In this document: positions 31,941 to 56,290 of the stretch, in pieces
Numbering within the stretch: the stretch's first letter is position 1
Layout of the letters: each line of letters begins with the position of its first letter
Program-made: the position numbers and the translations under genes
Assembly: GCA_964446175.1 (NCBI GenBank)
Contig: CAYUNM010000034.1
Coordinates: 15,115-79,114 of the forward strand
Reading direction: 5' to 3'
From: an uncultured Kofleriaceae bacterium
GTDB taxonomy: Bacteria; Myxococcota_A; Polyangia; Haliangiales; Haliangiaceae
Length of the DNA stretch: 64,000 nucleotides
Notes under the pieces: generated by a model
The model's database searches: none
Told to the model about the DNA's origin: nothing
The model's input: the letters and a program-made list of their open reading frames with translations, nothing else

Positions 31941-33499
31941 GAGGCCTCGAGCTGCTTCGCGAGGCGCGTGACCTCACCGCGCGCGAGGCCGGCGTGGAAC
32001 ACCTGCTCGAGCGTCAGCCGCTCGCCGGAGACCATCTCGGTCGCGCCGAGGCGAACGACCCCATCCGTATCGATCGTCACCTCGACGAGGCACAGCACGT
32101 CGCCCGCCGGCGCGGGCGGCAGGTCGACGACCGCGTAGCGCCCGAGGTGCCGGTTCTGCGACGGATCCTGCGACTCGCCTTCCCACACGTCGAACTCGAG
32201 GCGCGCCTGCTCGTCGGTGCGCGTCGCGAGCAGGCGGTGCTCGCGCGTCGGCACGACCGCGCTCTGCGCGATCACCATCTCGCACTCGCCCTGCTGCACG
32301 CTCATCGAGAGGCCGCGCGCCGTGACGTCGATCAGCAGCACGCCCTCGATCGTGCCGTCGAGCCGCGCGACCTCGAGCGCCGCGCCGACCGCGACGACCT
32401 CCTCGGGGTTCGCGATCACGCTCGGCTCGCGGCCCGTGATCCGCGCCAGCTCCTTCTTCACGGCCGGCATGCGCGTGCTGCCGCCGACGAGCAGCACCTC
32501 CTCGATCTCCTCGCGCTTGCGGCCGCACCGGCGCAGCGCCTCCTTCACGGGCGGCTCGAGGCGCTTGACGAGCGGCGACGCCCACAGCTCGAGCTCGTCG
32601 CGCCGCACCGGGCGGGCGTAGTCGACGAGCTTGCCGCTCGGCAGCTCCGCGAGGCCTGCCACCGTGACCGTCGCGCTGCCGTGATCCGACAGCTCGTGCT
32701 TCGCGCGCTGCGCGGCGAGCCGCAGCTTCTCGATCGCGAACGCATCGGTCGAGACGTCGATGCCGCGCGTCTGCCGCACGTCGCGCACGAGGTGCTCGAC
32801 GATCGCGCGATCGACGTCGTCGCCGCCGAGGAACGGATCGCCGGTCGTCGCGAGCACCTCGAAGACGCCGGCCTCGACGTCGACGGCCGCGACGTCGAAC
32901 GTGCCGCCGCCGAGATCGCACACGAGGTAGCGACGATCCGCGCCGCGATGCGCGCCGTGGCCGAGCGCGGCCGCCGTCGGCTCGCTGATGAGCCGGATCA
33001 CCTGCAGCCCCGCGATCGCGGCCGCGTCTTTCGTCGCCTGGCGCTGCGCGGCGTCGTACCACGCGGGGATCGTGATCACCGCGCTCGTCACGGGAGCCTT
33101 GTAGAACCGCTCCGCCGTGCGCTTGAGCTCGCGGAGGATCAGCGCCGAGACCTCCTCGGGCGAGACGGCGCGGCCGTGCGCGAGCTGGATCCACGTGTCG
33201 CCGTTCGGCGCCTCGGTGATCTCGTACGGCAGGATGCGCGCGAGCTTCTTGATCTCGGGATGATCGAAGCGACGGCCGAGCAAACGCTTCGCGCCGAAGA
33301 TCGTCAGGTCCGGCGAGTGATCGAGCCCCTCGCGCGCCGCCTCGCCGACGACCGGCCCGTGTGGCGAGAACCACACGAGCGACGGCAGCGTCGTCGAGCC
33401 TTCCGCGGTCGTCAGGATGCGCGGCACGCCGTCGCGATCGATGACCGCGACGACCGAGTTCGTCGTGCCGAGATCGATGCCGACCGCGCGCGCGCTCAT
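31937..33499 (-). CDS. Hsp70 family ATPase, short form lacking the C-terminal lid (520 aa)
   Basis: VGIDLGTTNSVVAV, DLGGGTFDV, LVGGSTRMPAVK. Substrate-binding beta domain is present, the helical lid is absent. ATG at 33499. Confidence 0.88.
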   Translation of the reverse strand: MSARAVGIDLGTTNSVVAVIDRDGVPRILTTAEGSTTLPSLVWFSPHGPVVGEAAREGLDHSPDLTIFGAKRLLGRRFDHPEIKKLARILPYEITEAPNGDTWIQLAHGRAVSPEEVSALILRELKRTAERFYKAPVTSAVITIPAWYDAAQRQATKDAAAIAGLQVIRLISEPTAAALGHGAHRGADRRYLVCDLGGGTFDVAAVDVEAGVFEVLATTGDPFLGGDDVDRAIVEHLVRDVRQTRGIDVSTDAFAIEKLRLAAQRAKHELSDHGSATVTVAGLAELPSGKLVDYARPVRRDELELWASPLVKRLEPPVKEALRRCGRKREEIEEVLLVGGSTRMPAVKKELARITGREPSVIANPEEVVAVGAALEVARLDGTIEGVLLIDVTARGLSMSVQQGECEMVIAQSAVVPTREHRLLATRTDEQARLEFDVWEGESQDPSQNRHLGRYAVVDLPPAPAGDVLCLVEVTIDTDGVVRLGATEMVSGERLTLEQVFHAGLARGEVTRLAKQLEAS

Positions 33500-33575
33500 C
33501 GCGGGTCCTCGCTCCGCTCGGCCCGCGACGCAAGCCCACCCATCCCCAACACCCCGCAAGCTTCGCTTGCTCTCC
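33500..33575 (-). promoter_or_regulatory. 76-nt structured intercistronic element, copy A (between the J-domain gene stop and the Hsp70 start)
   Basis: Sense strand reads GGAGAGCAAGCGAAGCTTGCGGGGTGTTGGGGATGGGTGGGCTTGCGTCGCGGGCCGAGCGGAGCGAGGACCCGCG, flanked by TGA and ATG. About 88% identical to the copies at 39637 and 42560. Confidence 0.8.
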
Positions 33576-34694
33576 TCATTCGAACACCCGCTTCAGCCGC
33601 TCCGGGCTGCCCGCACCATGGCGGCGCACGTGCTCGAGCAGCCGCGACGCCTCGATGCAGTGCTCGTGGTGCGCGAGCGCGGTCTCGAGCTGCGTCGTCG
33701 CGAGCACGAGCTCGCCTTCCTGCAGCGCGGCGAGCGCCGTCGCGACGTAGTACAGCGAGCGCAGCGGCTTGCTGCGCGGATAGATCACGAGCGCGGCCGC
33801 GAGCACCTCGCGCGCCGCATTCGCGTCGCCCGTCCTGAGCTGCGCGCGCGCACGATGCTCGAAGGCCTCCGCACCCTGCGGCGGCGCGGCCGGCGGCGGC
33901 TGCGGCGCGACCGGCTGCGGCGTGGGCGGACGCTCGAAGCGGCGCGGCGCGGTCTTCGGCACCGGCGTCGCATCGCCGCTCTGGATGTCCTCGAAGCCGA
34001 CGAGCCAGCCCGGCGGCGTCGCGATCAGCGAGCCCGCCTTGATGCCCTCGCCCTTCGCCATCAGCGCGATGCGCAGCCGGTCGTACGCGCGGTTGCCGAG
34101 GATCGTCAGCTCCTCCGCGAGGTGCGTGATCGCGGGCGCACCCCGCCGCGCGACGAGATCCGGATGATGCCGCCGGATGTGCGCCTTCCAGCCGTCGCGC
34201 AGCTGCTCGGGCGTCGGATCGCGCGGCACGCCGAGCACCTCGTGCACGGCCGCGGTGCGCATGCGGCGCAGCTCGCTCGACAGCTGCTGGAACAGCGCGC
34301 GCTCGTCGGCCGGCAGCTCGTCGCCGCCCATCGCGCTCGACTTGCGCGTCGGCGCGGCGGGCACGGGAATCTGCGGATCCGTCTCGACGTCGTCGTTGCC
34401 GCGCGCGGCGAGGTTCTTGATCCGCGCCAGCGTCTCCTCGGTGAGCCCGGTGAGATCGACCTCGATCCACATGCGCTGCGCGTCGCCCTCGACCGGCGAG
34501 GCCCGCTGGATGACGCCGTCGATCGCGATCACCATCTCGTTCGGCAGCTCGAGCCCGAGCGTCACCGGCGAGCCGAGCTTGGCCTGGAACGGCACCTTCA
34601 TCGACAGCAGGCGTCCCTTGCGCAGCTTGCGCTTCGTGAACGTCTCGACCTGCTCCCAGGTCGCGCATCGCACGTGCAGCGTGCGTGCGGCCAC
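33576..34694 (-). CDS. PilZ-like beta-barrel / J-domain (HPD) / TPR-like co-chaperone
   Basis: The N-terminal about 95 aa resemble the myxobacterial PilZ-type domain (canonical RxxxR and DxSxxG motifs not evident). J domain VHEVLGVPRDPTPEQLRDGWKAHIRRHHPD. Helical-repeat C-terminus. GTG start abuts the upstream stop (TAGGTG). Confidence 0.7.
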   Translation of the reverse strand: MAARTLHVRCATWEQVETFTKRKLRKGRLLSMKVPFQAKLGSPVTLGLELPNEMVIAIDGVIQRASPVEGDAQRMWIEVDLTGLTEETLARIKNLAARGNDDVETDPQIPVPAAPTRKSSAMGGDELPADERALFQQLSSELRRMRTAAVHEVLGVPRDPTPEQLRDGWKAHIRRHHPDLVARRGAPAITHLAEELTILGNRAYDRLRIALMAKGEGIKAGSLIATPPGWLVGFEDIQSGDATPVPKTAPRRFERPPTPQPVAPQPPPAAPPQGAEAFEHRARAQLRTGDANAAREVLAAALVIYPRSKPLRSLYYVATALAALQEGELVLATTQLETALAHHEHCIEASRLLEHVRRHGAGSPERLKRVFE

Positions 34695-36947
34695 CTACTT
34701 CCCCTTCTTCGCGTTCGGGTCGGGCTGCAGCTCGACCTTCTTCTCGAGGACGGCCTTCTTCTTCGCGGAGTCGATCGGCGTCGACGGATCGTTGTCGCGC
34801 CAGTCATTCTCCTTGAACTCGACGATCTCGGTCTTGAAGCCGGGCTTCACGACGGCGGCCGTGTAGTCGCGGCCCGCCCACAGGTTCTCGAAGTGCGCGT
34901 GGTTCGCGCCGATGAACAGCCACACGTCGGCATCGGCCGGCGACGAGTCGATGTGGACCTTGCCCGAGCCGACGATGCCCGTCGTGCCGAGCACGGCGCT
35001 CGTCGGCTGCAGCGGCAGCTCCGCCGGCTTGCCGGCCTTGCCGGGCTTGAGCGTGACGCTGAGCTTCGCGGCGAGCGACTTGCCGCTGCCGGTCCAGGTC
35101 GTGCCGTTGATCTGCGCCTCGGTCGGCTCGAAGCCGTCCTTGAGCAGCACGAGGTCGTGCTGCTGCGTCGCGGGCAGCGCGATCGGCACGTCGACGGGCG
35201 TCTTGCCGAGCTTGAGCCAGATGCCGGCCGCATCGGCGGTGATGTCGATCGCGCCCGGATCGGGCAGCGCTTCCTGCGCGGCCTTCGTCTTGTTCGCGGC
35301 CTCCTGCTCGGCACGCTCCTTCGCTTCCTTCGCGGCCTGCGCCTGCGCGTCGTCGGCGTGCAAGCGGTAGTAGATGCCGTAGCCGGCAGCGCCGAGGACG
35401 CCGAGGATCAGGATCGTGCCGATCACGCCGCGCAGCGGGCTCTTCAGCTTCGGCGCCGCGAGGTCCGTCATCTCGGGCATGTCGACGATCGGCGCCGCGC
35501 GCGGTGGAGTGCGCTTCGCGGGATTGCCGGTCTCGGCGCGCACGGCGGCGCGTTCGGCGCGCGCGGCGGCCTCCTCGAGCTTCGCGGCAGCCGCAGCCGC
35601 CTGCTCCGCGGCCGTCGAGACGCGCTTCGCGCCCTCGTCGAGCGAATCGATCGCGGCGAGTGCGGCCGCCTCATCGGTCGTGCCGCCGCGCATGCCGTTC
35701 GGGCTCGAGATGCGGCTCGGCGCGCGCAGCGGGAGCTCGCTCGACGACTCGCGGTGCGGCGACGGCGGCGGCAGCGGCGTCATGTCGTCGTCGGGATCGT
35801 CGAGCGACGGCACGCGTGCGCGCGACACGATCGCCTCGCGCTCGCGCGGGTCGTGCCGGATCAGCTCGCTGACCGGATCGCGCCGGAACGCCGACGGCGG
35901 CTCGGGATCGATGTGCGTCATCCCGGTGTCGTCGAGATCGTTGAGCAGCGAGCCGAGCCGGTCCGAGCCCGGGCGCGCCTTCTGGATCTTCTGCGCCTCG
36001 GCGCGCAGATCGAGGCTCGGCCGCGTGACCTGGATCGGACCGCCGCCGCCGAGCGACGCGAGCAGATCTTCGGTCGCGTCGTCGATGTTCGTGTCGCTGT
36101 GCGACAACCCCGCCTCGCGGATGAGCTCGCCACGATCCGCGAGCTCCCAGCGATCGTCCTCCATCGCCTCGAGCAGGTTCTCGAGCAGATCGCTGGCCGA
36201 CTTGTAGCGGCGCGACGTGTCGGTATCGAGCGCGCGCTGGACGAGCCGCTCGACGGCAGGCGTGACGCGCAGCGAGCCGGGCGGCACCTCGCCCGAGAGC
36301 ATCGTGAACAGCATCGCGCCGACGGCGAACACGTCGACGGCGGGCGTCGGATCCTCGCCGACGACGAGCTCGGGCGCGATGTAGCCGGTCAGCCCGCGCC
36401 ACAAGGACGAGTCCGCGCCCTGCGCGACCGCCTTCGTCAGCGCGTGGCCGACGATGAAGTCGGTCAGCCGCACGCCGCCGTCTTCGTCGATCAGCACGCT
36501 GCGCGGGTGCACGGCGCCGTGGATCACGCCCGCCTCGTGCGCGGCGGCGAGCGCCTCGATCACGCTGCGGCCGATCAGGCCCGCGATCGGCGTCGACAGC
36601 TTGCCGCCCTGCTTCGACTTCGCCTTGGCGGCCGTGATCAGGTCCTGCACGGTGACGTACCGCCCGACGCCGCGCGTGACGACGACGACATCGGGCCCGC
36701 CCGACTCGACGCCGACCGTCGGCACGATGTTCGGGTGCTCGAGCTTGGTCACCGTCGTGATCGTCTTCGCGTCGGTCAACGCGATGCGAAACGTGTCGTC
36801 TTCGAGGATCTTTGGATCGACGATCAGACCACGCAGGTTGCGCTGCCCCATGAACTGCGCGCGGTGAATCGCGCCATACATGGTGACGGCCAACCGCTCG
36901 CTGAGGACAACGCCGGCGATGATCTGCTCGGCCGCTTGGCCACCCAC
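34695..36947 (-). CDS. Membrane-spanning Ser/Thr pseudokinase with extracytoplasmic PEGA domains (start at GTG 36947 or ATG 36881)
   Basis: Kinase fold retained (LEHPNIV, YIAPE, RY.SA.DLL) but the Gly loop is absent, HRDLKPxN is replaced by HGAVHPRSV, and DFG by TDF. Then a TM helix (VIGTILILGVLGAAGYGIYY) and two PEGA-like modules. Confidence 0.75.
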   Translation of the reverse strand: MGGQAAEQIIAGVVLSERLAVTMYGAIHRAQFMGQRNLRGLIVDPKILEDDTFRIALTDAKTITTVTKLEHPNIVPTVGVESGGPDVVVVTRGVGRYVTVQDLITAAKAKSKQGGKLSTPIAGLIGRSVIEALAAAHEAGVIHGAVHPRSVLIDEDGGVRLTDFIVGHALTKAVAQGADSSLWRGLTGYIAPELVVGEDPTPAVDVFAVGAMLFTMLSGEVPPGSLRVTPAVERLVQRALDTDTSRRYKSASDLLENLLEAMEDDRWELADRGELIREAGLSHSDTNIDDATEDLLASLGGGGPIQVTRPSLDLRAEAQKIQKARPGSDRLGSLLNDLDDTGMTHIDPEPPSAFRRDPVSELIRHDPREREAIVSRARVPSLDDPDDDMTPLPPPSPHRESSSELPLRAPSRISSPNGMRGGTTDEAAALAAIDSLDEGAKRVSTAAEQAAAAAAKLEEAAARAERAAVRAETGNPAKRTPPRAAPIVDMPEMTDLAAPKLKSPLRGVIGTILILGVLGAAGYGIYYRLHADDAQAQAAKEAKERAEQEAANKTKAAQEALPDPGAIDITADAAGIWLKLGKTPVDVPIALPATQQHDLVLLKDGFEPTEAQINGTTWTGSGKSLAAKLSVTLKPGKAGKPAELPLQPTSAVLGTTGIVGSGKVHIDSSPADADVWLFIGANHAHFENLWAGRDYTAAVVKPGFKTEIVEFKENDWRDNDPSTPIDSAKKKAVLEKKVELQPDPNAKKGK

Positions 36948-36967
36948 GGAAGCGAAGATACCACGGC

Positions 36968-37819
36968 TCAGTAAGCAGTTAGCCGCATGTGGACCTCGAT
37001 CCACGGCTCGGCGAACAGGTAAAAGACCGCCGCCGCCGCGAGGTACGGCCCGAACGCGAGCTCGCTCGTCATCGAGCCCTCGCCCCGGCGCAAAAGCCGC
37101 ATGGTCTCGATGACGGTCCCGAGCATCGAGCCGCCGAACAGGGTCGCGAGCACGCCCTTCCACCCGAGCAGCGCGCCGACGAGCGCGAGCAGCTTCGCGT
37201 CGCCGAGCCCGAGGCCCTCGCGCTTGCGGATGCGGAAGTAGAGCTCGCCGATCAGCCACGGCAGCCCGTAGCCGATCGCGATCCCGACGAGGCCGTCGTA
37301 CCAGCGCCGCTCCGGCAGCAGGAACGTTGCCGCGTAGAAGATCGCGACCGATGGATACGTGACCTTGTCGAGGATGTACTTCGTGTCGAGGTCGATGAAC
37401 GTGATCACGATCATCACGAACACGAACGCCGCCATGATCACGAACCGGATCACGCGCAGCTGCATCGGCTCGAGCATCCCGGCCGGCCCGATGGTGAACC
37501 ACCACGCCACGCCGAACAGCGCGCCCGTGATCGCCTCGACGAGCAGGTAGCGCGCGGAGAACGGCGCCTTGCAGTTGCGGCACTTCCCGCGCAGCCACAG
37601 CCACGAGATCAGCGGGACGTTGTCGTACCACTTGATCGGCGCCTTGCAGGCGAAGCAGTGCGAGCCCGGCGCGACGACGGAGCGGCCCTTGGGAAACTCG
37701 TCGCTCGGCGCCCAGCGATAGATGCAGACGTTCGCGAAGCTGCCCCAGAGCAGGCCGAGGACGACGGCAAATGCATAGGCACCGGGCGTATCGGCCAGCG
37801 GCTCGAGCTCGGTGAGCAC
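36968..37819 (-). CDS. pilD: Prepilin peptidase (A24 family, PilD/GspO-type)
   Basis: Zn-finger-like CFACKAPIKWYDNVPLISWLWLRGKCRNCK, catalytic Asp contexts FIDLDTKY and GLGDAKLLA. Start inferred at GTG 37819. Confidence 0.85.
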   Translation of the reverse strand: MLTELEPLADTPGAYAFAVVLGLLWGSFANVCIYRWAPSDEFPKGRSVVAPGSHCFACKAPIKWYDNVPLISWLWLRGKCRNCKAPFSARYLLVEAITGALFGVAWWFTIGPAGMLEPMQLRVIRFVIMAAFVFVMIVITFIDLDTKYILDKVTYPSVAIFYAATFLLPERRWYDGLVGIAIGYGLPWLIGELYFRIRKREGLGLGDAKLLALVGALLGWKGVLATLFGGSMLGTVIETMRLLRRGEGSMTSELAFGPYLAAAAVFYLFAEPWIEVHMRLTAY

Positions 37820-37873
37820 GATGCAATTGTGCCGTGGTTGACCCGGCTCGTCGAGAAAGCTAAGACCTCCGGG

Positions 37874-38848
37874 ATGATCCGCTCCACCCTGCTTGCCACG
37901 CTGGCACTCGCCGCGTGCGGCCGCTCGCAGGGCGTCGAGGATCGCGATCTCGGCGGGCTCGTCGTCGCGCCGACGCATGAAGACAAGCCGATCCAGCTCG
38001 ATCGCGCGGCCAAGGATCCCGCGGAGCTGGGGCGCGCGCTGTCGGTGCCAAAGCGGCAGGTCGACGCGGCGCTCGGTGTCCACACGGTTGCCATCTCGAC
38101 GCAGACGACCGTCGAGGAGGCCGGCAAGCCCGTCTCCGACCTCCGCGACCACACGACGATCGAGCTCGGCGAGGCGGGCGCGTACCACGGCGTCTACACG
38201 AACTCGGCGGACTACGGACGCGAGGTGATCTTCGTCGGCGGCCAGCTCTACCTCGAGCCGCGCTACCAGCGCTGGCACCAGCGCGCGCCCGAGTCGCCCG
38301 AGGAGCCCGCGCAGATCGAGGACGACATGTACGGCGCGATCGCGGCGACGTGGGATCTGCTCGCGCCGGGCGCCGAGCTGACCGACCAGGGGCCCGCACA
38401 GGTCGGCGGGCGCGCCGGCCGCAAGATCGCGGTGAAGCTGTCTCCGTCTCCGAAGAAGCCTCCCGCCGAGAAGCTCGCTCAGCGCAAGTGGCGCGAGAAG
38501 CGGACGATCGATGCCGTCTCCGGCGAGGTCATCCTCGACGCCGAGAAGGGCGTGCCGCTCTCCGTGAAGCTGACGGGCACCGTCGGGTTCACGCGCGACA
38601 ACCGCCGGTTCTCGATGAAGATCACGCTGCAGAGCGAGGTCTCCGGAATCGGCGTCGCCGCGGCGGTGAAGGCCCCTGCCCCCGAAGACACCGTCGCGAC
38701 GCCGGAGCGGCTGCGCGAGGTCGATGACCGCGATTTCCTGCTCCAGGGCATCGCCCCGCCGCTGCGCAAGAACCCCGACGGCTCGCCGGTGACGCCCGCT
38801 CCTGCGGCTCCCGCCGCCGCCGGTTCTGCGTCAAACTCGGCTAAATGA
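37874..38848 (+). CDS. Lipoprotein, unknown function (324 aa)
   Basis: ATG at 37874. Lipobox LATLALAAC. No family recognised. Divergent from pilD. Confidence 0.6.
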   Translation: MIRSTLLATLALAACGRSQGVEDRDLGGLVVAPTHEDKPIQLDRAAKDPAELGRALSVPKRQVDAALGVHTVAISTQTTVEEAGKPVSDLRDHTTIELGEAGAYHGVYTNSADYGREVIFVGGQLYLEPRYQRWHQRAPESPEEPAQIEDDMYGAIAATWDLLAPGAELTDQGPAQVGGRAGRKIAVKLSPSPKKPPAEKLAQRKWREKRTIDAVSGEVILDAEKGVPLSVKLTGTVGFTRDNRRFSMKITLQSEVSGIGVAAAVKAPAPEDTVATPERLREVDDRDFLLQGIAPPLRKNPDGSPVTPAPAAPAAAGSASNSAK

Positions 38849-39636
38849 CCGCGCTCGTCCAGCGCCGCGACTACCTCGAAGGCCAGCGCCGCACGATCAT
38901 CGCGCGCGCGCTGCTCGGGAGCCTCGCCGGGACGATTCCGCTGCCGTTCGTCGACGACTGGGCGATCGAGCGCATCCTCGGCGGCGGCTACCGCCGGATC
39001 GCGGCCGCGCACCACGTCGATCTGACCGACGAGGCCGTCGCGGCGCTCGTCCACGGGCCGGGCAAGGCGCCGTCGATCACGGAGATGGCGGCCGGCGGCA
39101 TCCTGATGCGCGTCGCCGGCCGCGCGGCGAAGAAGATGATGGTCGCGCTCGCGACGATCAACCGCGCGCGCTCGGCGGCCCGCACGTTCACGGCGATGAC
39201 GCTGTTCGATCACTACTGCGCGAAGCTCCACCGCGGCCTCGCGCTCGATGCGCCCACCGCGCTCGCGCTCCGCGAGGAGATCGCGCGCTCGATCGACAAC
39301 ACGCCCGGCGCGCTCGTCTTCCATCCGTTCCGCCGCGGCGTGCTCGCGGCCGCTCGCGCGACGGTCAAGGCGCCGCTCGAGCTCGCCGACCTCGCGACCG
39401 GAGGCCGCGTGCGCAAGCTGCTCGCGAGCAAGAACGACGTGCACGATCCCGAGCACGTCGGCGACCTCGAGCAGGTGATGGATGCCGCGCTCGCGGATAA
39501 AGACGGGTTCCTCGCGCGCACGGTGACCGCCGTCGAGGTCCAGCTGTCGAGCGAGGTCAACCCGTACCTCGATGCCGCGCTCGACTCGCTCGATCGCCGG
39601 TGGCGCGCGCGGATCGCGGCAGGCGTCGTGAAATGA
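38845..39636 (+). CDS. Hypothetical protein (263 aa), weakly DUF697-like N-terminus
   Basis: ATGA overlap with the upstream gene. IIARALLGSLAGTIPLPFVDDWAIERILGGGYRRIAAAH resembles the DUF697 pattern (low confidence). High GC3. Confidence 0.55.
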   Translation: MTALVQRRDYLEGQRRTIIARALLGSLAGTIPLPFVDDWAIERILGGGYRRIAAAHHVDLTDEAVAALVHGPGKAPSITEMAAGGILMRVAGRAAKKMMVALATINRARSAARTFTAMTLFDHYCAKLHRGLALDAPTALALREEIARSIDNTPGALVFHPFRRGVLAAARATVKAPLELADLATGGRVRKLLASKNDVHDPEHVGDLEQVMDAALADKDGFLARTVTAVEVQLSSEVNPYLDAALDSLDRRWRARIAAGVVK

Positions 39637-39712
39637 GGAGAGCAAACGAAGTTTGCGGGGTGTCGGGGCTGGGTGGGCTTGCATCACGGGCCGAGCGAAG
39701 CGAGGACCCGGG
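39637..39712 (+). promoter_or_regulatory. 76-nt structured intercistronic element, copy B (immediately upstream of proB)
   Basis: GGAGAGCAAACGAAGTTTGCGGGGTGTCGGGGCTGGGTGGGCTTGCATCACGGGCCGAGCGAAGCGAGGACCCGGG between TGA (39634-39636) and ATG (39713). Confidence 0.8.
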
Positions 39713-40800
39713 ATGACGGAGCGCGAGCAGCTACGCGCGAGCAAGCGCGTCGTCATCAAGATCGGCAGCCGGCTGCTCGCGGAGGCGCCCGCGAGCCGGC
39801 CCGCCGTGATCGCGGACCAGATCGTCGCGCTGCGTGCGAAGGGTATCGAGGTGCTCGTCGTGTCGTCGGGCGCGATCGCGCTCGGCATGCGGCGCCTCGG
39901 TCTCGCGGCGCGGCCGACGGAGATGCCGGCACTCCAGGCGGCCGCCGCCGTCGGGCAGTCGCGGCTGATGCAGCACTGGGAGCACGCGTTCGGCGCGCAC
40001 GAGGTCGAGATCGGGCAGGTCCTGCTGACGCACGACGACCTCGGGGATCGCCGGCGCTTCCTCTCGGCGCGGCTGACGCTGCGCGCGCTGCTCGATGCGC
40101 AGTGCGTGCCGATCATCAACGAGAACGACACGGTCGCGACCGAGGAGATCAAGTTCGGCGATAACGATCAGCTCGCCGCGCTCGTCTGCAACCTCGTCAG
40201 CGCGGACTGCCTCGTGATCCTCACCGACGTCGAGGGCGTGCGCGGCGCGGACGGCGTGCGGATGCCGATCGTGCGCGACATCGATCGCGAGGCGGTGCCC
40301 GTCGCGGGCGGCTCGACGAGCGGCGTCGGCTCGGGCGGCATGGCGAGCAAGGTCGGATCCGCGCGCATCGTCACGCGGACCGGCGTCGCGGCCGTGGTCG
40401 CCCCGGGGCGCGAGCCCGACGTGCTCGTGCGCGTGCTCGCCGGCGACGACCTCGGCACGCTGTTCGTGCCGGCGAGCAAGCTGTCGAGCCGCAAGCACTG
40501 GATCGCCTACGGCGCGAAGCCCGCCGGCAAGCTGACGATCGACGACGGCGCGGCTCGCGCGCTGCGCGACGGCGGCAAGTCCCTGCTCCCGGCCGGCATC
40601 GTTTCGGTCGACGGGGACTTCGAGCTCGGCGACACCGTGTCGATCCTGACTCGCGACGGTCACGAATTCGCCCGTGGTCTCGCGGCCTACGGTGGGGCGG
40701 ATCTGCGCAAGATCCAGGGCTTGCAATCCGCCGGCATCGAGGCCAGGCTGGGATACAAAGGCATCGACGAAGCAATCCACCGGGATGATCTCGTGATCTT

Positions 40801-40804
<4 letters not shown>
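39713..40804 (+). CDS. proB: Glutamate 5-kinase
   Basis: KRVVIKIGSRLL, VLVVSSGAIALG, NENDTV, and a C-terminal PUA domain. Confidence 0.93.
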
Positions 40805-42054
<1,250 letters not shown>

Positions 42055-42073
42055 GAGGGAGAGACGACAGGGA

Positions 42074-42559
42074 ATGACCAAAGCGAAGAAGCACGCCCCG
42101 CCCCAACCGCCCAAAGCGCGCGGCCGCGCCAACGAGACGCCCGACGCGACGCAGACGTCGACCGAAGGCCTCGACGGTGCGATGCGCGCGCTCGCGATCG
42201 CGCTGGACAAGAAGGCCCTCGAGCCGATCCTGCTCGACGTCCGCCAGCTGTGCTCGTTCTGCAACTACCAGCTGGTGCTGTCGGGCCGCTCGGACCGCCA
42301 GGTCGACGCGATCGCCGACGGCATCGAGCTCGCGCTCAAGCAAGAAGGCTTGCGCCCGATCTCGACGGAAGGCGCGCGCAGCGGCCAGTGGGCACTGCTC
42401 GACTACGGCGACTTCGTCGTGCACGTGTTCCTGCACTCGGCGCGCGAGCACTACGATCTCGAAGGCCTGTGGAACGATGCGCCGCGCGTGCCGATCGACG
42501 TGCCCGCCGAGGCGCGCGTGCCGGTCGACGATCAGTACGACGCGTCGTTCGTCTCGTGA
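42074..42559 (+). CDS. rsfS: Ribosome silencing factor RsfS (iojap-like) with an N-terminal basic extension
   Basis: ILLDVRQLCSFCNYQLVLSGRSDRQVDAIADGI...WALLDYGDFVVHVFLHSAREHYDLEGLW. Confidence 0.88.
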   Translation: MTKAKKHAPPQPPKARGRANETPDATQTSTEGLDGAMRALAIALDKKALEPILLDVRQLCSFCNYQLVLSGRSDRQVDAIADGIELALKQEGLRPISTEGARSGQWALLDYGDFVVHVFLHSAREHYDLEGLWNDAPRVPIDVPAEARVPVDDQYDASFVS

Positions 42560-42635
42560 GGAGAGCAACCGAAGGTTGCGGGGTGTTGGGGTTGGGTGGG
42601 CTTGCACAACGGGCCGAGCGAAGCGAGGACCCGGA
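42560..42635 (+). promoter_or_regulatory. 76-nt structured intercistronic element, copy C (between rsfS and rlmH)
   Basis: GGAGAGCAACCGAAGGTTGCGGGGTGTTGGGGTTGGGTGGGCTTGCACAACGGGCCGAGCGAAGCGAGGACCCGGA between TGA (42557-42559) and GTG (42636). Confidence 0.8.
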
Positions 42636-43064
42636 GTGAAGATCTTCGTGGCGGCCATCGGCCGCCTCAAAGAACAGTACCTGCACGCGGCGGAGGCCGA
42701 GTACACCAAGCGTCTCCGCCCGTACTGCACGCTGAAGGTCGACGAGCACGAGTCGGAGGCCGCGCTGCTGAAGTCTCTCCCCGGCACCGCGCACCTCTAC
42801 GCGTTCGACGAGCGCGGCGAGCAGCTCTCGTCGCAGCAGTTCGCCGAGCTGCTAGCCGCCGAGGCCTCGCACGGCGGCGGCGCGCCCGTCGTGTTCGCGA
42901 TCGGCGGCGCCGACGGCCACAGCGACGAGCTACGCAAGCGCGCGCGCAAGCTGATCGCGTTCGGCCGGCTGACGATCGCGCACCGCCTCGTACGGATCCT
43001 CGTGCTCGAGCAGGTCTATCGCGGCTTCAAGATCCTCAAGGGCGAGCCGTATCACCGCGAGTGA
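42636..43064 (+). CDS. rlmH: 23S rRNA (pseudouridine1915-N3)-methyltransferase
   Basis: GTG start giving (M)KIFVAAIGRLKEQYL...FAIGGADGHSDELRKRA...LTIAHRLVRILVLEQVYRGFKILKGEPYH, a SPOUT/RlmH pattern. Confidence 0.88.
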   Translation: MKIFVAAIGRLKEQYLHAAEAEYTKRLRPYCTLKVDEHESEAALLKSLPGTAHLYAFDERGEQLSSQQFAELLAAEASHGGGAPVVFAIGGADGHSDELRKRARKLIAFGRLTIAHRLVRILVLEQVYRGFKILKGEPYHRE

Positions 43065-52654: not shown

Positions 52655-55600
52655 GTGAAGCTCCAAACGATTTTCTTCCTCGCAGTTTCGATCGCGGTGG
52701 TGGGGTGCGGGGGCGACGGCAAGAAGGCGCCGACAGGGCCCGAGTGCTCGAACGGCGTCGACGATGACGGCGACGGGAAGATCGACTTCCCCGACGATCT
52801 CGGCTGCTCCAACGCCCAGGACGACAGCGAGGACAGCGCCCTGCTTCCGCAGTGCAACGACGGACGCGACAACGACGGCGACGGAAAGATCGACTATCCG
52901 AACGATCCCGGCTGCCTCGTCGCGCAGCAGGACAGCGAGACCGACGACTGTCCCGACGGGCCGGGTTGCCCGCAGTGCAGCAACGGCAAGGACGACGATG
53001 CGAACGGTCTGACCGACTATCCGAACGATCCCGGTTGCACGTCCGCCGGCGACTTCGACGAGTACACGCAGAACCCGAACGCGTGCGGCACCGGCATCAT
53101 GATCCATCAGCTGCCGCCCACCGGCATGGTGACCGCGATGGTCGACGGCATGCAGCTCTATCCGAACGTCTCGCCGTGCGGCGGCGGCGGCAGCAGCGGC
53201 ATCGACGTCGCCGCGTACGAGCTGCACCTCACCGAGCCGAAGGTGATCGTCGCGTCGACGGCGGGCTCGGCGATCGACACCGTGCTCGACATCCGCAGCG
53301 CGGCGTGCAGCGCGGCCGACTCCGAGCTCGCGTGCAATGACAACGACGGCAACCTCACCACGTCGAAGCTCGCGTACTCCGCGCAGCCGGGCACGTACTA
53401 CATCCTCGTCGAGACGAGGTCGGGCGTCGCCGGCAACTTCATGCTGACCGTGCAGCAGCTCGCCGGCGAAGGCACCGCGTGCACCGACAACAGCGAGTGC
53501 GGTCCCGGCCTCGTCTGCCGCATCCCGCACGGCGGCTCGACGATGTCGTGCGAGAAGCCCGTCTGCAACGACGGTCGCGACGACGACGGCGACGGCAAGA
53601 TGGACTACCCGAACGATCCGGGCTGCACGTCGGCCGACGACGACGACGAGACCGATGACTGCCCGAGCGGCCCCGGCTGCCCCGCGTGCGCGAATGGCGT
53701 GGACGACGACAACGACGGGATGACGGACTATCCGGCCGACACGTCGTGCACGAGCGCCTCGGGCAACAGCGAGGCGTGCCAGGGCGAAGAGGATCCGATC
53801 ACCGCGATCACCGCGGGGACGACCTCGGGAACGCTCGTCGGCGCGCACGACAACCACGACCCGACGTGCGGTGGTGACGGCGGCGGCGACATCCTCTACA
53901 CGCTCACCGTCCCGCCGATGCGCTCGCTCGTGCTCGACACCGAGGGCACGACCGGCGACACGCTGCTGTCGATCATGACGGCGACCTGCAGCGAGCCGAG
54001 CCTGGCGTGCGATGACGACGGCGGCACGTCGGGAAGCTCGTCGCGCCTCGCGCTGAGCAACCTCGCCGCCGGCACGTACATCGTCGCCGTCGACAACTAC
54101 AACGGCACGAAGCCGCCCGCGCCCTACGACCTGCACCTCACCGGCGTGATCCAGCCGGGCGGCAGCTGCAACCCCTCCGACACGCTCGGCGGCGCGCTGC
54201 AGTGCCCCGTCTCGAATCCGTGCTCCGGCACGACCGGCAACCTCAAGTGCCAGCCGAGCGCGTGCGGCGACGGCCAGGACAACGACGGCGACGGCAAGAC
54301 CGACTACCCCGACGATCCGGGCTGCGCGTCGGCCGACGACACCGACGAGTCCGACTCGTGCCCCGGCGCCGGCCCGAACTGCCCCGAGTGCGCCGACGGC
54401 GTCGACAACGACGGTGACGGCCAGATCGATTACCCGAACGACACGAACTGCACGTCGCCGGGCCAGGCGTCGGAAGGCTGCCCGTCGACGGACGGCGTCA
54501 CCGCGATCACGACCAGCGTGACGCAGGACTCGACGACCGGCGCGAACAACGACGTCCACCCGACGTGCAGCAGCAGCAGCGAGGCGGCGCCGGACCACAC
54601 GTTCAGCCTGCAGCTGCCGACGCTCAAGTCGCTGTCGATCGTGGGCTCGAACACGTGGGACGGCGTGCTGGCGCTCTACGACTCGACCTGCGGCGGCACG
54701 CCGCTGTCGTGTCAGGACGGCGAGAACATCTCGCTGCAGAACGTCACGGCCGGCAACTACTTCCTCGTCCTCGACGGCTACTCGACGGGATCGGGCGACT
54801 CGACGATCACCGTCAGCGGCGTGATCCAGAACGGCGGCAGCTGCGAATCGCCGCTCGCGCAGAACGGCGCGCTGACGTGCTCGACGGGCTTCGCCTGCGC
54901 CGGCACGCCCGGCTCGCGCACCTGCCGTCCCGCTGCCTGCAACGACGGCCACGATAACGACGGCGACGGCATCGCCGACTACCCGAACGATCCGGGCTGC
55001 GCCTCGATCAGCGACAACGACGAGTCCGACGCGTGCCCCGGCGGCGCGGGCTGCCCGGCGTGCAGCGATGGTCAGGACAACGACGGCGACGGCATGATCG
55101 ACTATCCGGATGATCCGAGCTGCGGCGCGGCATCGGGAACGTCGGAAGCCTGTGCCTCGAGCGAGCAGGTCATCGCGCTCGTCGCTCCGTCGACGCCCGG
55201 CACGACCGTCAACAGCGTGAATGACGTCATCCCGACGTGCGGCAGCTCGTCGAACACGGCTGGCGATCTCACGTACTCGCTCACCGTCCCCGCGCTGTCG
55301 AGCCTGACGATCACGAACACGAACTCGTTCGACGCGGCGGTCGAGCTGCTCGACTCGACGTGTGGCGGCGCGCCGCTGCAGTGCAAGGACGAGCCCGAGA
55401 CGATCCAGGTCGGGCCGCTCGATGCCGGCACGTACTACTACGTCATCGACGGCTACAGCTCGTCGACCGGTGCGTACACGATCGACGTCGCGGGCACGAT
55501 CAAGAACGGCGCGAGCTGCGAGGGCACGCTCGCCGATACCGGCGCGCTGACCTGCGGCGCGGGCTACGCGTGCAAGGGCGTCGCGGGCGCGCGCACGTGC

Positions 55601-56290
55601 CAGCCCCTCCAGTGCGCCGATGGCATGGACAACGATGGCGACGGCAAGATCGACTTCCCGTTCGAGCCGGGCTGCGATTCGCCCTCGGACGACGACGAGA
55701 CCGATCCCGCCACCGCTTCGGTGTGCTCGAACGGCGCCGACGACGACAACGACATGGCGACCGACTTCCCGGCCGACTACGGCTGCTCGTCGGCGGCCGG
55801 CACGAGCGAGGTCTTCTGCGCGCCGGAGATGAACCCGACCGCGCTGATCACGACGACGCCGGTGACCGGCACCACCGCCGGCCTGACGAGCGAGTTCGCG
55901 AGCCACAGCTGCCAGTCGAGCTCGAGCGGCGCGGACACCGTCCTCGCACTCCAGCTGCCCGTCGCGGTCGACACGCTCGTCCTCGACCTGTCGAACTCGA
56001 GCTACGACACCGTGCTCAGCGTCCGCGACCTGACGTGCGGCACGCAGCTCGCCTGCGACGATGACAGCGGCGACCCCGGCTCGCAGTCCAAGCTGACGAT
56101 GACGGCGGTGGCGGCTGGCACGTACGCGGTCGTCATCGACGGCTACAGCGGGAGCTCGGGCGCGTACACGCTGGCGGTCCACGGCACGCTCGGGGCGGGC
56201 ACGCGCTGCGACTCGCCGCTCGTCACGTCGGGCGTGCTCGCCTGCGCGACCGGCCTGACCTGCTCGGGATCGCCGGCGACCTGTCGCTGA
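52655..56290 (+). CDS. Giant modular lipoprotein: 5 super-modules of MopE-type Cys/Asp metal-binding motifs + PPC-like beta-sandwich + small Cys-knot segment
   Basis: GTG start. Lipobox IAVVGCGG. 11 copies of C.(N/D)G.D(D/N)D.(D/N)G..D(Y/F)P.D..C. 5 copies of a GTY..V.DGYS...G.Y...V.G segment, each followed by GG.C......GAL.C..G..C. Confidence 0.8.
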   Translation: MKLQTIFFLAVSIAVVGCGGDGKKAPTGPECSNGVDDDGDGKIDFPDDLGCSNAQDDSEDSALLPQCNDGRDNDGDGKIDYPNDPGCLVAQQDSETDDCPDGPGCPQCSNGKDDDANGLTDYPNDPGCTSAGDFDEYTQNPNACGTGIMIHQLPPTGMVTAMVDGMQLYPNVSPCGGGGSSGIDVAAYELHLTEPKVIVASTAGSAIDTVLDIRSAACSAADSELACNDNDGNLTTSKLAYSAQPGTYYILVETRSGVAGNFMLTVQQLAGEGTACTDNSECGPGLVCRIPHGGSTMSCEKPVCNDGRDDDGDGKMDYPNDPGCTSADDDDETDDCPSGPGCPACANGVDDDNDGMTDYPADTSCTSASGNSEACQGEEDPITAITAGTTSGTLVGAHDNHDPTCGGDGGGDILYTLTVPPMRSLVLDTEGTTGDTLLSIMTATCSEPSLACDDDGGTSGSSSRLALSNLAAGTYIVAVDNYNGTKPPAPYDLHLTGVIQPGGSCNPSDTLGGALQCPVSNPCSGTTGNLKCQPSACGDGQDNDGDGKTDYPDDPGCASADDTDESDSCPGAGPNCPECADGVDNDGDGQIDYPNDTNCTSPGQASEGCPSTDGVTAITTSVTQDSTTGANNDVHPTCSSSSEAAPDHTFSLQLPTLKSLSIVGSNTWDGVLALYDSTCGGTPLSCQDGENISLQNVTAGNYFLVLDGYSTGSGDSTITVSGVIQNGGSCESPLAQNGALTCSTGFACAGTPGSRTCRPAACNDGHDNDGDGIADYPNDPGCASISDNDESDACPGGAGCPACSDGQDNDGDGMIDYPDDPSCGAASGTSEACASSEQVIALVAPSTPGTTVNSVNDVIPTCGSSSNTAGDLTYSLTVPALSSLTITNTNSFDAAVELLDSTCGGAPLQCKDEPETIQVGPLDAGTYYYVIDGYSSSTGAYTIDVAGTIKNGASCEGTLADTGALTCGAGYACKGVAGARTCQPLQCADGMDNDGDGKIDFPFEPGCDSPSDDDETDPATASVCSNGADDDNDMATDFPADYGCSSAAGTSEVFCAPEMNPTALITTTPVTGTTAGLTSEFASHSCQSSSSGADTVLALQLPVAVDTLVLDLSNSSYDTVLSVRDLTCGTQLACDDDSGDPGSQSKLTMTAVAAGTYAVVIDGYSGSSGAYTLAVHGTLGAGTRCDSPLVTSGVLACATGLTCSGSPATCR

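Follow-up and report, generated by a model that had tools for sequence, protein, structure and literature searches.

A dispersed 80-nt repeat at stop/start junctions in Kofleriaceae-like Myxococcota is probably a small mobile unit that carries a relay mini-cistron

A 64,000-nt stretch of the genome of an uncultured Kofleriaceae bacterium (contig CAYUNM010000034.1, positions 15,115 to 79,114; hereafter the window) contains three near-identical intergenic copies of a short element, each filling the space between a stop codon and the next start codon. The copies are probably insertions of a small non-autonomous mobile unit of soil Myxococcota (Kofleriaceae-like), which lands directly after a stop codon and acts as a translated relay mini-cistron. 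The unit is inserted 3′ of N-T-R-A (N = any base, R = A or G) at former stop/start overlaps, both of its stems show covariation, the second stem encloses the Shine-Dalgarno sequence and the start codon, and its reading frame is kept where a gene follows.

An earlier note on this DNA had described gaps of 76 nt at 33500-33575 (minus strand), 39637-39712 and 42560-42635, with a common orientation and a TGA-to-start layout. Inspection of the sequence agreed with this description: each copy follows a TGA stop and extends to the point where the next co-directional gene starts with ATG or GTG, and the three (A, B and C in order of position) share about 90% mutual identity. A 26-nt G-rich block and a 24-nt 3′ block occurred three times each in the window and were absent from 100 dinucleotide-preserving shuffles. 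A covariance model, which the note had suggested as a check, was run over the window with filters off; it recovered the three copies at about 100 bits each, with the next best match at 12.5 bits. According to Pfam searches of the flanking genes, the junctions are hyp372/hsp70 (A), hyp263/proB (B) and rsfS/rlmH (C), where hyp263 and hyp372 are open reading frames (ORFs) of 263 and 372 aa for which the Pfam search returned no match. The note had overlooked that every copy has an identical tetranucleotide on both sides, 80 nt apart (ATGA/ATGA in A and B, GTGA/GTGA in C). Differences among the copies are confined to one compensated stem pair, the outer stem of hairpin 2, loop positions of a G-quadruplex (G4) motif and the N of a GNA loop. 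Copy A lies on the minus strand and copies B and C on the plus strand, all within 10 kb.

The evidence for insertion comes from syntenic relatives, which were found through ProA homologues and have the gene order of the window throughout. They comprise the metagenome-assembled genome (MAG) JAFAOG01 (L074; ProA identity 91%), two JGI metagenome contigs (L077, 91%; L076, 80%) and a Kofleriaceae MAG (L078, 79%). At every window junction covered by their contigs, these relatives have a bare 4-nt stop/start overlap. The proB junction reads GTGA in L074, L077 and L078 and TTGA in L076, with nothing added. The hsp70 junction is a bare ATGA overlap in L074, L076 and L078, the contig of L077 stopping short of it. 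The rsfS/rlmH junction is CTGA in L078, whose rlmH start is ambiguous, and reads TTCGTCTC-GTGA-AG(A/G)TC without interruption in L074 (AGATC) and L077; the window has TTCGTCTC-GTGA-[GGAGA...GGAGTGA]-AGATC. At all three junctions the window thus equals RTGA plus 80 nt, and the exact filling of the gaps follows from insertion into a zero-length junction. No copy of the unit was found by the covariance model over 79 kb of the syntenic loci of the four relatives. MAG JAFAOG01, which is without the three insertions of the window, has the unit elsewhere (L001, L005, L015). The empty junctions indicate that the window copies were gained after the split of lineages that are 91% identical in ProA and, judged from these alleles, the unit is recently mobile.

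Beyond the window, a scan of metagenomes and a scan of genomes, with the covariance model applied afterwards, yielded about 47 further distinct copies located beside unrelated genes. Most matches of the genome scan were due to chance and lay in coding DNA (L003, L004, L006-L014). Most copies come from soil metagenomes, and the named relatives are Kofleriaceae or 'Deltaproteobacteria' MAGs. The neighbouring genes have no common function (proB, rlmH, hsp70, genes for an HlyD-type adaptor, cysC-like and rluA-like genes, lipoprotein genes). Three states were distinguished: relay, in which the unit ends in the start codon of the next gene as in the window; fusion, in which its frame runs into the downstream gene; and convergent, in which it lies between convergent genes. 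Orthologous empty sites, that is, presence/absence polymorphisms, were recovered for six junctions in all. At a convergent site, TGA-C-CTA (L079) became TGA-[81 nt]-TCA (L020), and at a fusion site ATGA/GGTGG (L081, L082) became ATGA/[81 nt ...GCTCCGA]/GGTGG (L029, L026), with no direct repeat in either case. A relay site in the same contigs changed from GTGA/AGTGG to RTGA/[80 or 71 nt ...RTGA]/AGTGG. Filled and empty alleles are therefore at hand for all three contexts, which is unusually clean evidence.

The unit is 80 nt long, or 81 nt in a sister subfamily; the copies seen are all single, in one orientation relative to the upstream gene and without tandem arrays. In nearly all of the approximately 47 copies it starts directly 3′ of N-T-(G/A)-A, which with few exceptions is a stop codon. 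The stops at the left flank are mostly TGA, with about ten TAA and one TAG, and the TAG copy looks as if TGAGG had lost 1 nt; G is the most frequent base ahead of the stop. The over-representation of TAA together with the near absence of TAG favours sequence recognition over recognition of 'any stop codon'. One copy (L016) lies in a plain spacer, with GTGA at its left side 45 nt past the real upstream stop, ATGA at its right side and no gene at the right end. As a possible refutation, the earlier note had considered a dispersed repeat with random orientation and position relative to genes; the repeat is indeed dispersed, but its orientation and position are far from random. Two observations concern the target itself. 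The TAA share (about 10 of 47) is far above what we would expect for a genome of ~70% GC. AAG is frequent as the final sense codon ahead of the unit (...AAG-TGA or ...AAG-TAA), and target preference may reach beyond T-R-A.

From 5′ to 3′, the unit consists of the sequence GGAGA, hairpin 1 with a GAA triloop, a G tract capable of forming a G-quadruplex and the longer hairpin 2, whose 3′ arm holds GAGGA (Shine-Dalgarno) and the terminal RTGA of the unit. In copy B (plus strand), the host target ATGA (39633..39636) includes the stop TGA of the 263-aa gene, and its ATG is the start of the mini-ORF. The inserted 80-nt unit (GGAGA ... GGGATGA, 39637..39716; 100.4 bits) is the 76-nt gap plus its own terminal ATGA, which supplies the proB start. 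It contains hairpin 1 (GCAAAC-GAA-GTTTGC, 39642..39656; −4.1 kcal/mol as RNA, with covariation in the family), the G tract GGGGTGTCGGGGCTGGGTGGG (39657..39677) with four G runs and a predicted three-tier G-quadruplex, and hairpin 2 (CATCAC-GGGCC-GA-GC-GAA-GC-GA-GG-a-CCC-GGGATG, 39682..39715; −17.0 kcal/mol, z = −3.6; outer stem covarying). Both the Shine-Dalgarno GAGGA (39702-39706) and the proB start ATG (39713-39715) lie within hairpin 2. The 27-codon relay ORF (MRRANEVCGVSGLGGLASRAERSEDPG, then stop; 39633..39716) overlaps the upstream stop with its start and the proB start with its stop.

The other two window copies have the same layout. Copy C (plus strand) follows the target GTGA at the stop of rsfS (42556..42559) and occupies 42560..42639, with hairpin 1 at 42565-42579, hairpin 2 at 42605-42638, the rlmH start GTG at 42636-42638 and the relay ORF (VRRATEGCGVLGLGGLAQRAERSEDPE, then stop) at 42556-42639. 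Copy A (minus strand) follows the target ATGA at the stop of the 372-aa gene (33576..33579) and occupies 33496..33575, with hairpin 1 at 33556-33570, hairpin 2 at 33497-33530 (−22.9 kcal/mol), the hsp70 start ATG at 33497-33499 and the relay ORF (MRRASEACGVLGMGGLASRAERSEDPR, then stop) at 33496-33579. About five other RTGA stop/start overlaps in the window are unoccupied (40801, 31939, 3003, 7262 and 4622, including proB/proA and hsp70/thioredoxin), according to a crude gene call based on GC content at third codon positions (GC3). All three occupied junctions fall within the same 10 kb.

The compensatory fifth pair of hairpin 1, to which the earlier note had drawn attention, is present as G-C in copy A (arms GCAAGC/GCTTGC), A-T in copy B (GCAAAC/GTTTGC) and C-G in copy C (GCAACC/GGTTGC). 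In the family, the commonest form of this hairpin is GCGAGC-GAA-GCGAGC, with tandem G·A pairs. A pairing of its 5′ arm with the GCTTGC located after the G tract appeared in minimum-free-energy folds computed without G-quadruplexes; it was rejected, as the compensations in copies B and C lie in the local 3′ arm and the distal GCTTGC is invariant. In hairpin 2, four bases that had been left unpaired in the original alignment belong to a segment that pairs with the two bases preceding the start codon and with the start codon itself (CGTCGC/GCGATG, CATCAC/GGGATG and CACAAC/GGAGTG in A, B and C), and the stem is consequently 6 bp longer than first described and includes the start codon. Isolated folds of hairpin 2 in the three copies had RNA free energies of −16.5 to −22.9 kcal/mol (z about −3.5). 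The proposed occlusion of the Shine-Dalgarno sequence by the 3′ fold was reproduced in the predicted folds, where the start codon is buried as well. A feature missed at first is the canonical G-quadruplex motif GGGG-N4-GGGG-N2-GGG-N-GGG. With G-quadruplexes allowed, RNAfold predicts the arrangement hairpin 1, G4 and hairpin 2 at 9-14 kcal/mol below the best fold without G4; the minimum free energy of copy B as RNA goes from −28.0 to −37.0 kcal/mol. In the family alignment, the G runs are conserved and the loop positions variable.

Covariation was computed on an alignment of 44 family sequences. The score for the two hairpins was 0.235, compared to 0.082 for column shuffles (0 of 500 reached the observed value) and 0.03-0.07 for a control with slid partners, and selection on structure, as originally proposed, is thus upheld. 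For the base pair that includes the start codon's first base, 23 sequences have C-G, 14 have U-A and 6 have G-C, meaning that the choice between ATG and GTG is mirrored by CAT or CAC in the 5′ arm. The 12-mer GAGCGAAGCGAG forms both the core of hairpin 1 (consensus GC-GAGCGAAGCGAG-CG) and that of the hairpin 2 apex (CC-GAGCGAAGCGAG-GA); the unit therefore bears two direct copies of a single hairpin motif. The heptamer GCGNAGC has been described as an 'extraordinarily stable' DNA mini-hairpin (PMC13037366). Pairing is also maintained over time. The orthologous contigs L026 and L029 share 84% identity over 1.8 kb and have two copies in common. The fusion copy is about 91% identical between them, above its surroundings, and the relay copy shows an in-frame deletion together with compensatory changes in stem 2, including a G-C to A-T exchange within the otherwise invariant core. 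These compensations indicate that the stems are kept in place after insertion and not only during mobilisation.

Such conservation could also be expected of a dedicated cis-regulatory RNA controlling translation, processing or stability of the downstream cistron, spread by regulatory recruitment and not by selfish mobility. This reading is close to the one that the earlier note had favoured, a new cis-acting RNA of these operons. It accounts for the covarying stems, for compensation and elevated conservation (~91% vs. 84% around) in old orthologous copies, for the position of the Shine-Dalgarno sequence and start codon inside a hairpin of −17 to −23 kcal/mol and for the G-quadruplex predicted between the hairpins. 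However, the same junctions are bare overlaps in four syntenic relatives, the flanking genes have no shared function, and copies also occur between convergent genes and, in L016, in a spacer without a downstream gene. A scan of the copies against Rfam 15 gave no match, in line with the note's remark that it recognised no named family. Consequently, we regard a dedicated regulatory RNA as unlikely and the proposal for these operons as not borne out; regulatory effects that arose as a by-product or by exaptation are plausible.

The identical tetranucleotides around the window copies, together with the RTGA found at the right end of all 18 relay-type or start-abutting copies, would fit a miniature inverted-repeat transposable element (MITE) moved by a cut-and-paste DDE transposase that duplicates a 4-bp RTGA target. 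We consider such an element quite improbable. The unit has no terminal inverted repeats (it runs from GGAGAGC... to ...GGACCCGNNRTGA), no direct repeat accompanies the convergent and fusion copies (TGA...GGCGG/TCA; ATGA...CCGA), and in 7 of the 18 copies the two flanks do not share their first base. The copy in L016 has GTGA at the left, ATGA at the right and no gene at its right end. Moreover, the right end, which is RTGA in the relay type, CCGA or ACGA in the fusion type and TTCGGCG in the convergent type, pairs in each case with the unit's own 5′ arm, and its RTG, CCG or ACG form is common to unlinked copies (GCTCCGA in L026/L029, L033 and L057), showing that the right end travels with the unit. 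The model of a 4-bp target-site duplication was dropped on the basis of the convergent and fusion empty sites and of L016. From the empty sites without direct repeat, the seven mismatched flanks, the lack of terminal inverted repeats and the pairing of the right end with the 5′ arm, we infer that the RTGA...RTGA pattern of the window represents the host target plus the unit's own end.

Three copies depart from the general pattern. The copy at L057:413-502 (minus strand) is without the GGAGA leader and follows GGTAA, where the upstream frame of high GC3 does not stop at that TAA. At L059:2853-2950 (minus strand), an insertion of ~9 nt breaks the G tract (GGGGTCACCATCTGGGCTTGG). A second copy on contig L018 (466-555, minus strand) lies at CTGA and has a diverged hairpin 2 (CCTCGCACGCCGAGCGAACCGAGGTCGAGCGAGG); it was found by the covariance model only, which means that scans with exact patterns under-count the family.

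The reading frame was traced from the NTG overlapping the stop of the upstream gene. A 27-codon ORF, overlooked at first, begins at the upstream RTG and ends in the TGA of the downstream RTGA. In the relay state (15 copies, including the three of the window), an NTGA at the 5′ junction and an RTGA at the 3′ junction are linked by an open frame of 27 codons; the relay copy of L026 has a 9-nt deletion, and its frame is still open (24 codons). In the fusion state (13 copies), the unit is 1 nt longer or its junction is altered, and the frame continues in frame into the downstream gene (GC3 at least 0.9). CCG or ACG has replaced the old ATG in L029, L033, L042, L063 and L018, where the frame enters lipoprotein or other signal peptides, and in L048 and L017 it enters cysC-like and rluA-like cores. 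No other in-frame start was present between the unit and the conserved protein in these fusions. Orthologues of the L029 adaptor protein without the unit have 388 aa and start with MRWL... or MKWL..., and an ENA gene caller annotated the filled allele as 415 aa, beginning at the ATG of the unit. In the convergent state (nine copies), the frame is not kept, two copies having a TAG inside the G tract; six of the nine come after a TAA, a stop that no start codon can overlap. Overall, a translatable path exists in 27 of the 30 co-directional copies that abut a gene (14 relay, 13 fusion) compared to 1 of the 9 convergent ones (Fisher's test, p = 2 × 10−5, indicative only). Given the in-frame fusions, several of them without any other start codon, the unit is very probably translated.

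The compensatory changes of hairpin 1 affect the second position of codons (S/N/T and A/V/G), and the conserved nucleotides are read in two frames, as ..RAERSEDP. in relay copies and ..GRAKRGP.. in fusions. Together, these observations point to selection on nucleic-acid structure and an open frame, and not on the peptide sequence. That the unit is a small-protein gene with the 27-residue peptide as its functional product is very improbable: the start-to-stop frame of the 15 relay copies and the conserved C-terminal half of the peptide would agree with it, but pairing is kept at the expense of the peptide, the same nucleotides are conserved in another frame in fusions, the frame is lost in convergent contexts and the conserved stretch coincides with the invariant hairpin core.

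Several points weigh against a mobile relay cistron. The copies are related, and Fisher's test overstates their independence; subfamily ancestry could account for part of the association between context and frame, given that the right ends of relay, fusion and convergent copies differ. The co-directional copies L001 and L037 are out of frame, and L023 has CTG at its 5′ junction. The G-quadruplex is a prediction, and its first G run is weaker (GGTG) in one subfamily. The z-score of the whole-element RNA fold (−0.96) is unremarkable at such a GC content, and that of the DNA fold (−2.04) is modest; the case for structure accordingly comes from covariation and from the hairpins folded in isolation. 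Neither a transposase nor any other trans-acting factor was found, and a tblastn search with an IS200 TnpA query against 0.5 Mb of DNA, which is a weak test, gave no match.

If the copies are mobile relay cistrons as proposed, their length would explain how the operons tolerate them. The unit leaves one frame open, and its 80 nt equal 2 modulo 3; a 27-codon mini-cistron would therefore begin at the former start codon of the host and end at the TGA of the unit. Ribosomes finishing the upstream gene would re-initiate on this mini-cistron, as they formerly did on the overlapping start of the downstream gene, and would melt hairpin 1, the G tract and hairpin 2 while translating it. After termination at the UGA they would re-initiate at the overlapping AUG or GUG, probably helped by GAGGA, whose end lies 6 nt upstream of this start. 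In this way, the insert would pass on the −4 translational coupling that existed before. Free ribosomes would be largely excluded and independent initiation suppressed, as hairpin 2 sequesters both the Shine-Dalgarno sequence and the start codon; the insert probably turns simple coupling into structure-gated coupling. Variants that are 1 nt longer would read into the downstream gene, adding ~28 N-terminal residues. In fusion alleles without a host start codon, the host protein can be made only by initiation inside the repeat. As for mobility, two like subterminal hairpins on one strand, the lack of inverted ends, a short target without duplication and the pairing of the end with a 'guide' point to a possible single-strand route of the HUH type, as in IS200/IS605 or repetitive extragenic palindromic (REP) elements.

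A bolder version, which we put forward only tentatively, is that the unit is a substrate of an undescribed single-strand transposition system targeting N-T-R-A close to stop codons, and that it has been put to use by its hosts as a modular 'coupling cassette'. In that case, the block of hairpin, RNA G-quadruplex and hairpin would make the downstream cistron strictly dependent on translation of the upstream one, and expression could be tunable, for example by helicases, K+ or temperature. Such a cassette would be a natural mobile version of the synthetic bicistronic design and, by grafting a start codon and ~28 N-terminal residues onto genes, a source of protein novelty in Myxococcota.

Among known systems, the closest analogues are the interspersed repetitive units of mycobacteria (MIRUs). 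By analogy, the present unit would work like a MIRU and is best regarded as a new MIRU-like mobile mini-cistron and not as a member of that family; we know of no sequence relationship between them. MIRUs are 77 and 53 bp long, likewise 2 modulo 3, and typically form tandem arrays (variable-number tandem repeats), whereas the present copies are all single. Their hosts are Actinomycetota and not Myxococcota, and the present unit additionally has two GNA-triloop hairpins with a G-quadruplex motif as well as sister subfamilies of fusion (N-terminal) or convergent type. If the analogy holds, a second phylum has independently arrived at the solution of hiding a mobile repeat in a −4 overlap by way of a relay cistron, here with a different architecture. 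The two have in common that they are short, intercistronic and apparently mobile, lie at the start codon of an operon gene or at a junction of stop and start and contain a small ORF coupled at −4 through ATGA or GTGA (PMC12548453). In that 2025 review, whose passage on MIRUs cites Supply et al. (1997, Mol Microbiol 26:991), MIRUs are described as mobile repeats that insert at start codons, with an internal ORF coupled at −4 spacing and minimal impact on expression.

Rickettsia palindromic elements (RPEs) are mobile palindromic repeats with an open frame that form in-frame fusions in unrelated host genes (PMC10969869), and the 81-nt fusion copies behave alike at N-termini. In contrast, RPEs are ~150 bp long and lie inside ORFs, while the present unit has 80-81 nt and sits at a gene boundary directly after the upstream stop, and the window copies form a separate relay cistron and not a fusion. 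With the ends of IS200/IS605 elements, their miniature derivatives and REP/RAYT elements (single-strand transposition of the HUH/Y1 type), the unit has several features in common: imperfect subterminal palindromes at both ends of one strand, a lack of terminal inverted repeats, and a fixed orientation 3′ of a specific short target that is not duplicated (PMC3201880, PMC5027513). In such elements the cleavage site pairs with a 'guide' located 5′ of the hairpin foot (compare IS608; PMC3201880); in the unit, CAY (Y = C or T), which lies 5′ of hairpin 2, is the pairing partner of the right-end RTG. It differs in a left 'linker' of only 5 nt and in having neither the 5′ GTAG nor the inverted doublets (REPIN/BIME) that are hallmarks of REP elements; there is no obvious replication-strand bias (A on the minus strand, B and C on the plus strand). 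Coupling by termination-reinitiation and the 'bicistronic design' likewise use a short upstream cistron to bring ribosomes to an overlapping start and to unfold an inhibitory structure (PMC12548453, PMC6728339). However, these are general mechanisms or engineered parts, whereas the present unit is a dispersed natural repeat family.

The family has practical consequences for annotation, because in such genomes gene callers are prone to set starts wrongly and to miss the 27-codon cistrons. It also offers a route to an enzyme that recognises N-T-R-A beside GCGNAGC hairpins.

Other searches of the copies and the window were negative. Across the whole window, Rfam gave no match that reached the gathering score, and when 33300-42900 was searched at E ≤ 10, none overlapped the copies; a tRNA/tmRNA search found none. 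A sigma-70 promoter scan, which is weak for myxobacteria, found nothing in the copies, and hence gave no hint of an internal promoter, in contrast to the MIRU in senX3-regX3. An intrinsic terminator scan showed no terminator-like site in any copy, and coding sequence follows directly after hairpin 2. A blastn search of a plasmid collection produced no match. Literature searches for the core motif GAGCGAAGCGAG returned only unrelated eukaryotic work, and those on myxobacterial repeats returned no description of the present family.

An unrelated repeat class in metagenome loci L021, L024, L039, L056/L065, L067 and L069 shares an identical 22-nt hairpin core with the unit. It reads (C)GTCAT(T/C)CC-GGGCCGAGCG(A/C)AGCGAGGACCC-GG(A/G)ATCCAT(A/G)ACC, has neither the G tract nor hairpin 1 and may resemble REP-like palindromes of Alphaproteobacteria. 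The GAGCGNAGCGAG apex may be a widely reused hairpin module.

Two further observations concern other parts of the window. At 34658-34745 (plus strand), at the boundary of the 372-aa gene and a kinase gene, there is a weak Rfam match to SorY that stays below threshold (31.6 bits, gathering score 111; E = 0.0026) and is probably due to chance. At 52655-56290 (plus strand), there is a 1211-aa ORF composed of about 10 repeats of 94 nt that encode a Cys/Asp-rich motif (C..DG.DNDGDGKIDYP.DPGC); these repeats are spaced in a super-repeat of ~675-700 nt, and Pfam identified PPC and galactose-binding-like domains in the protein.

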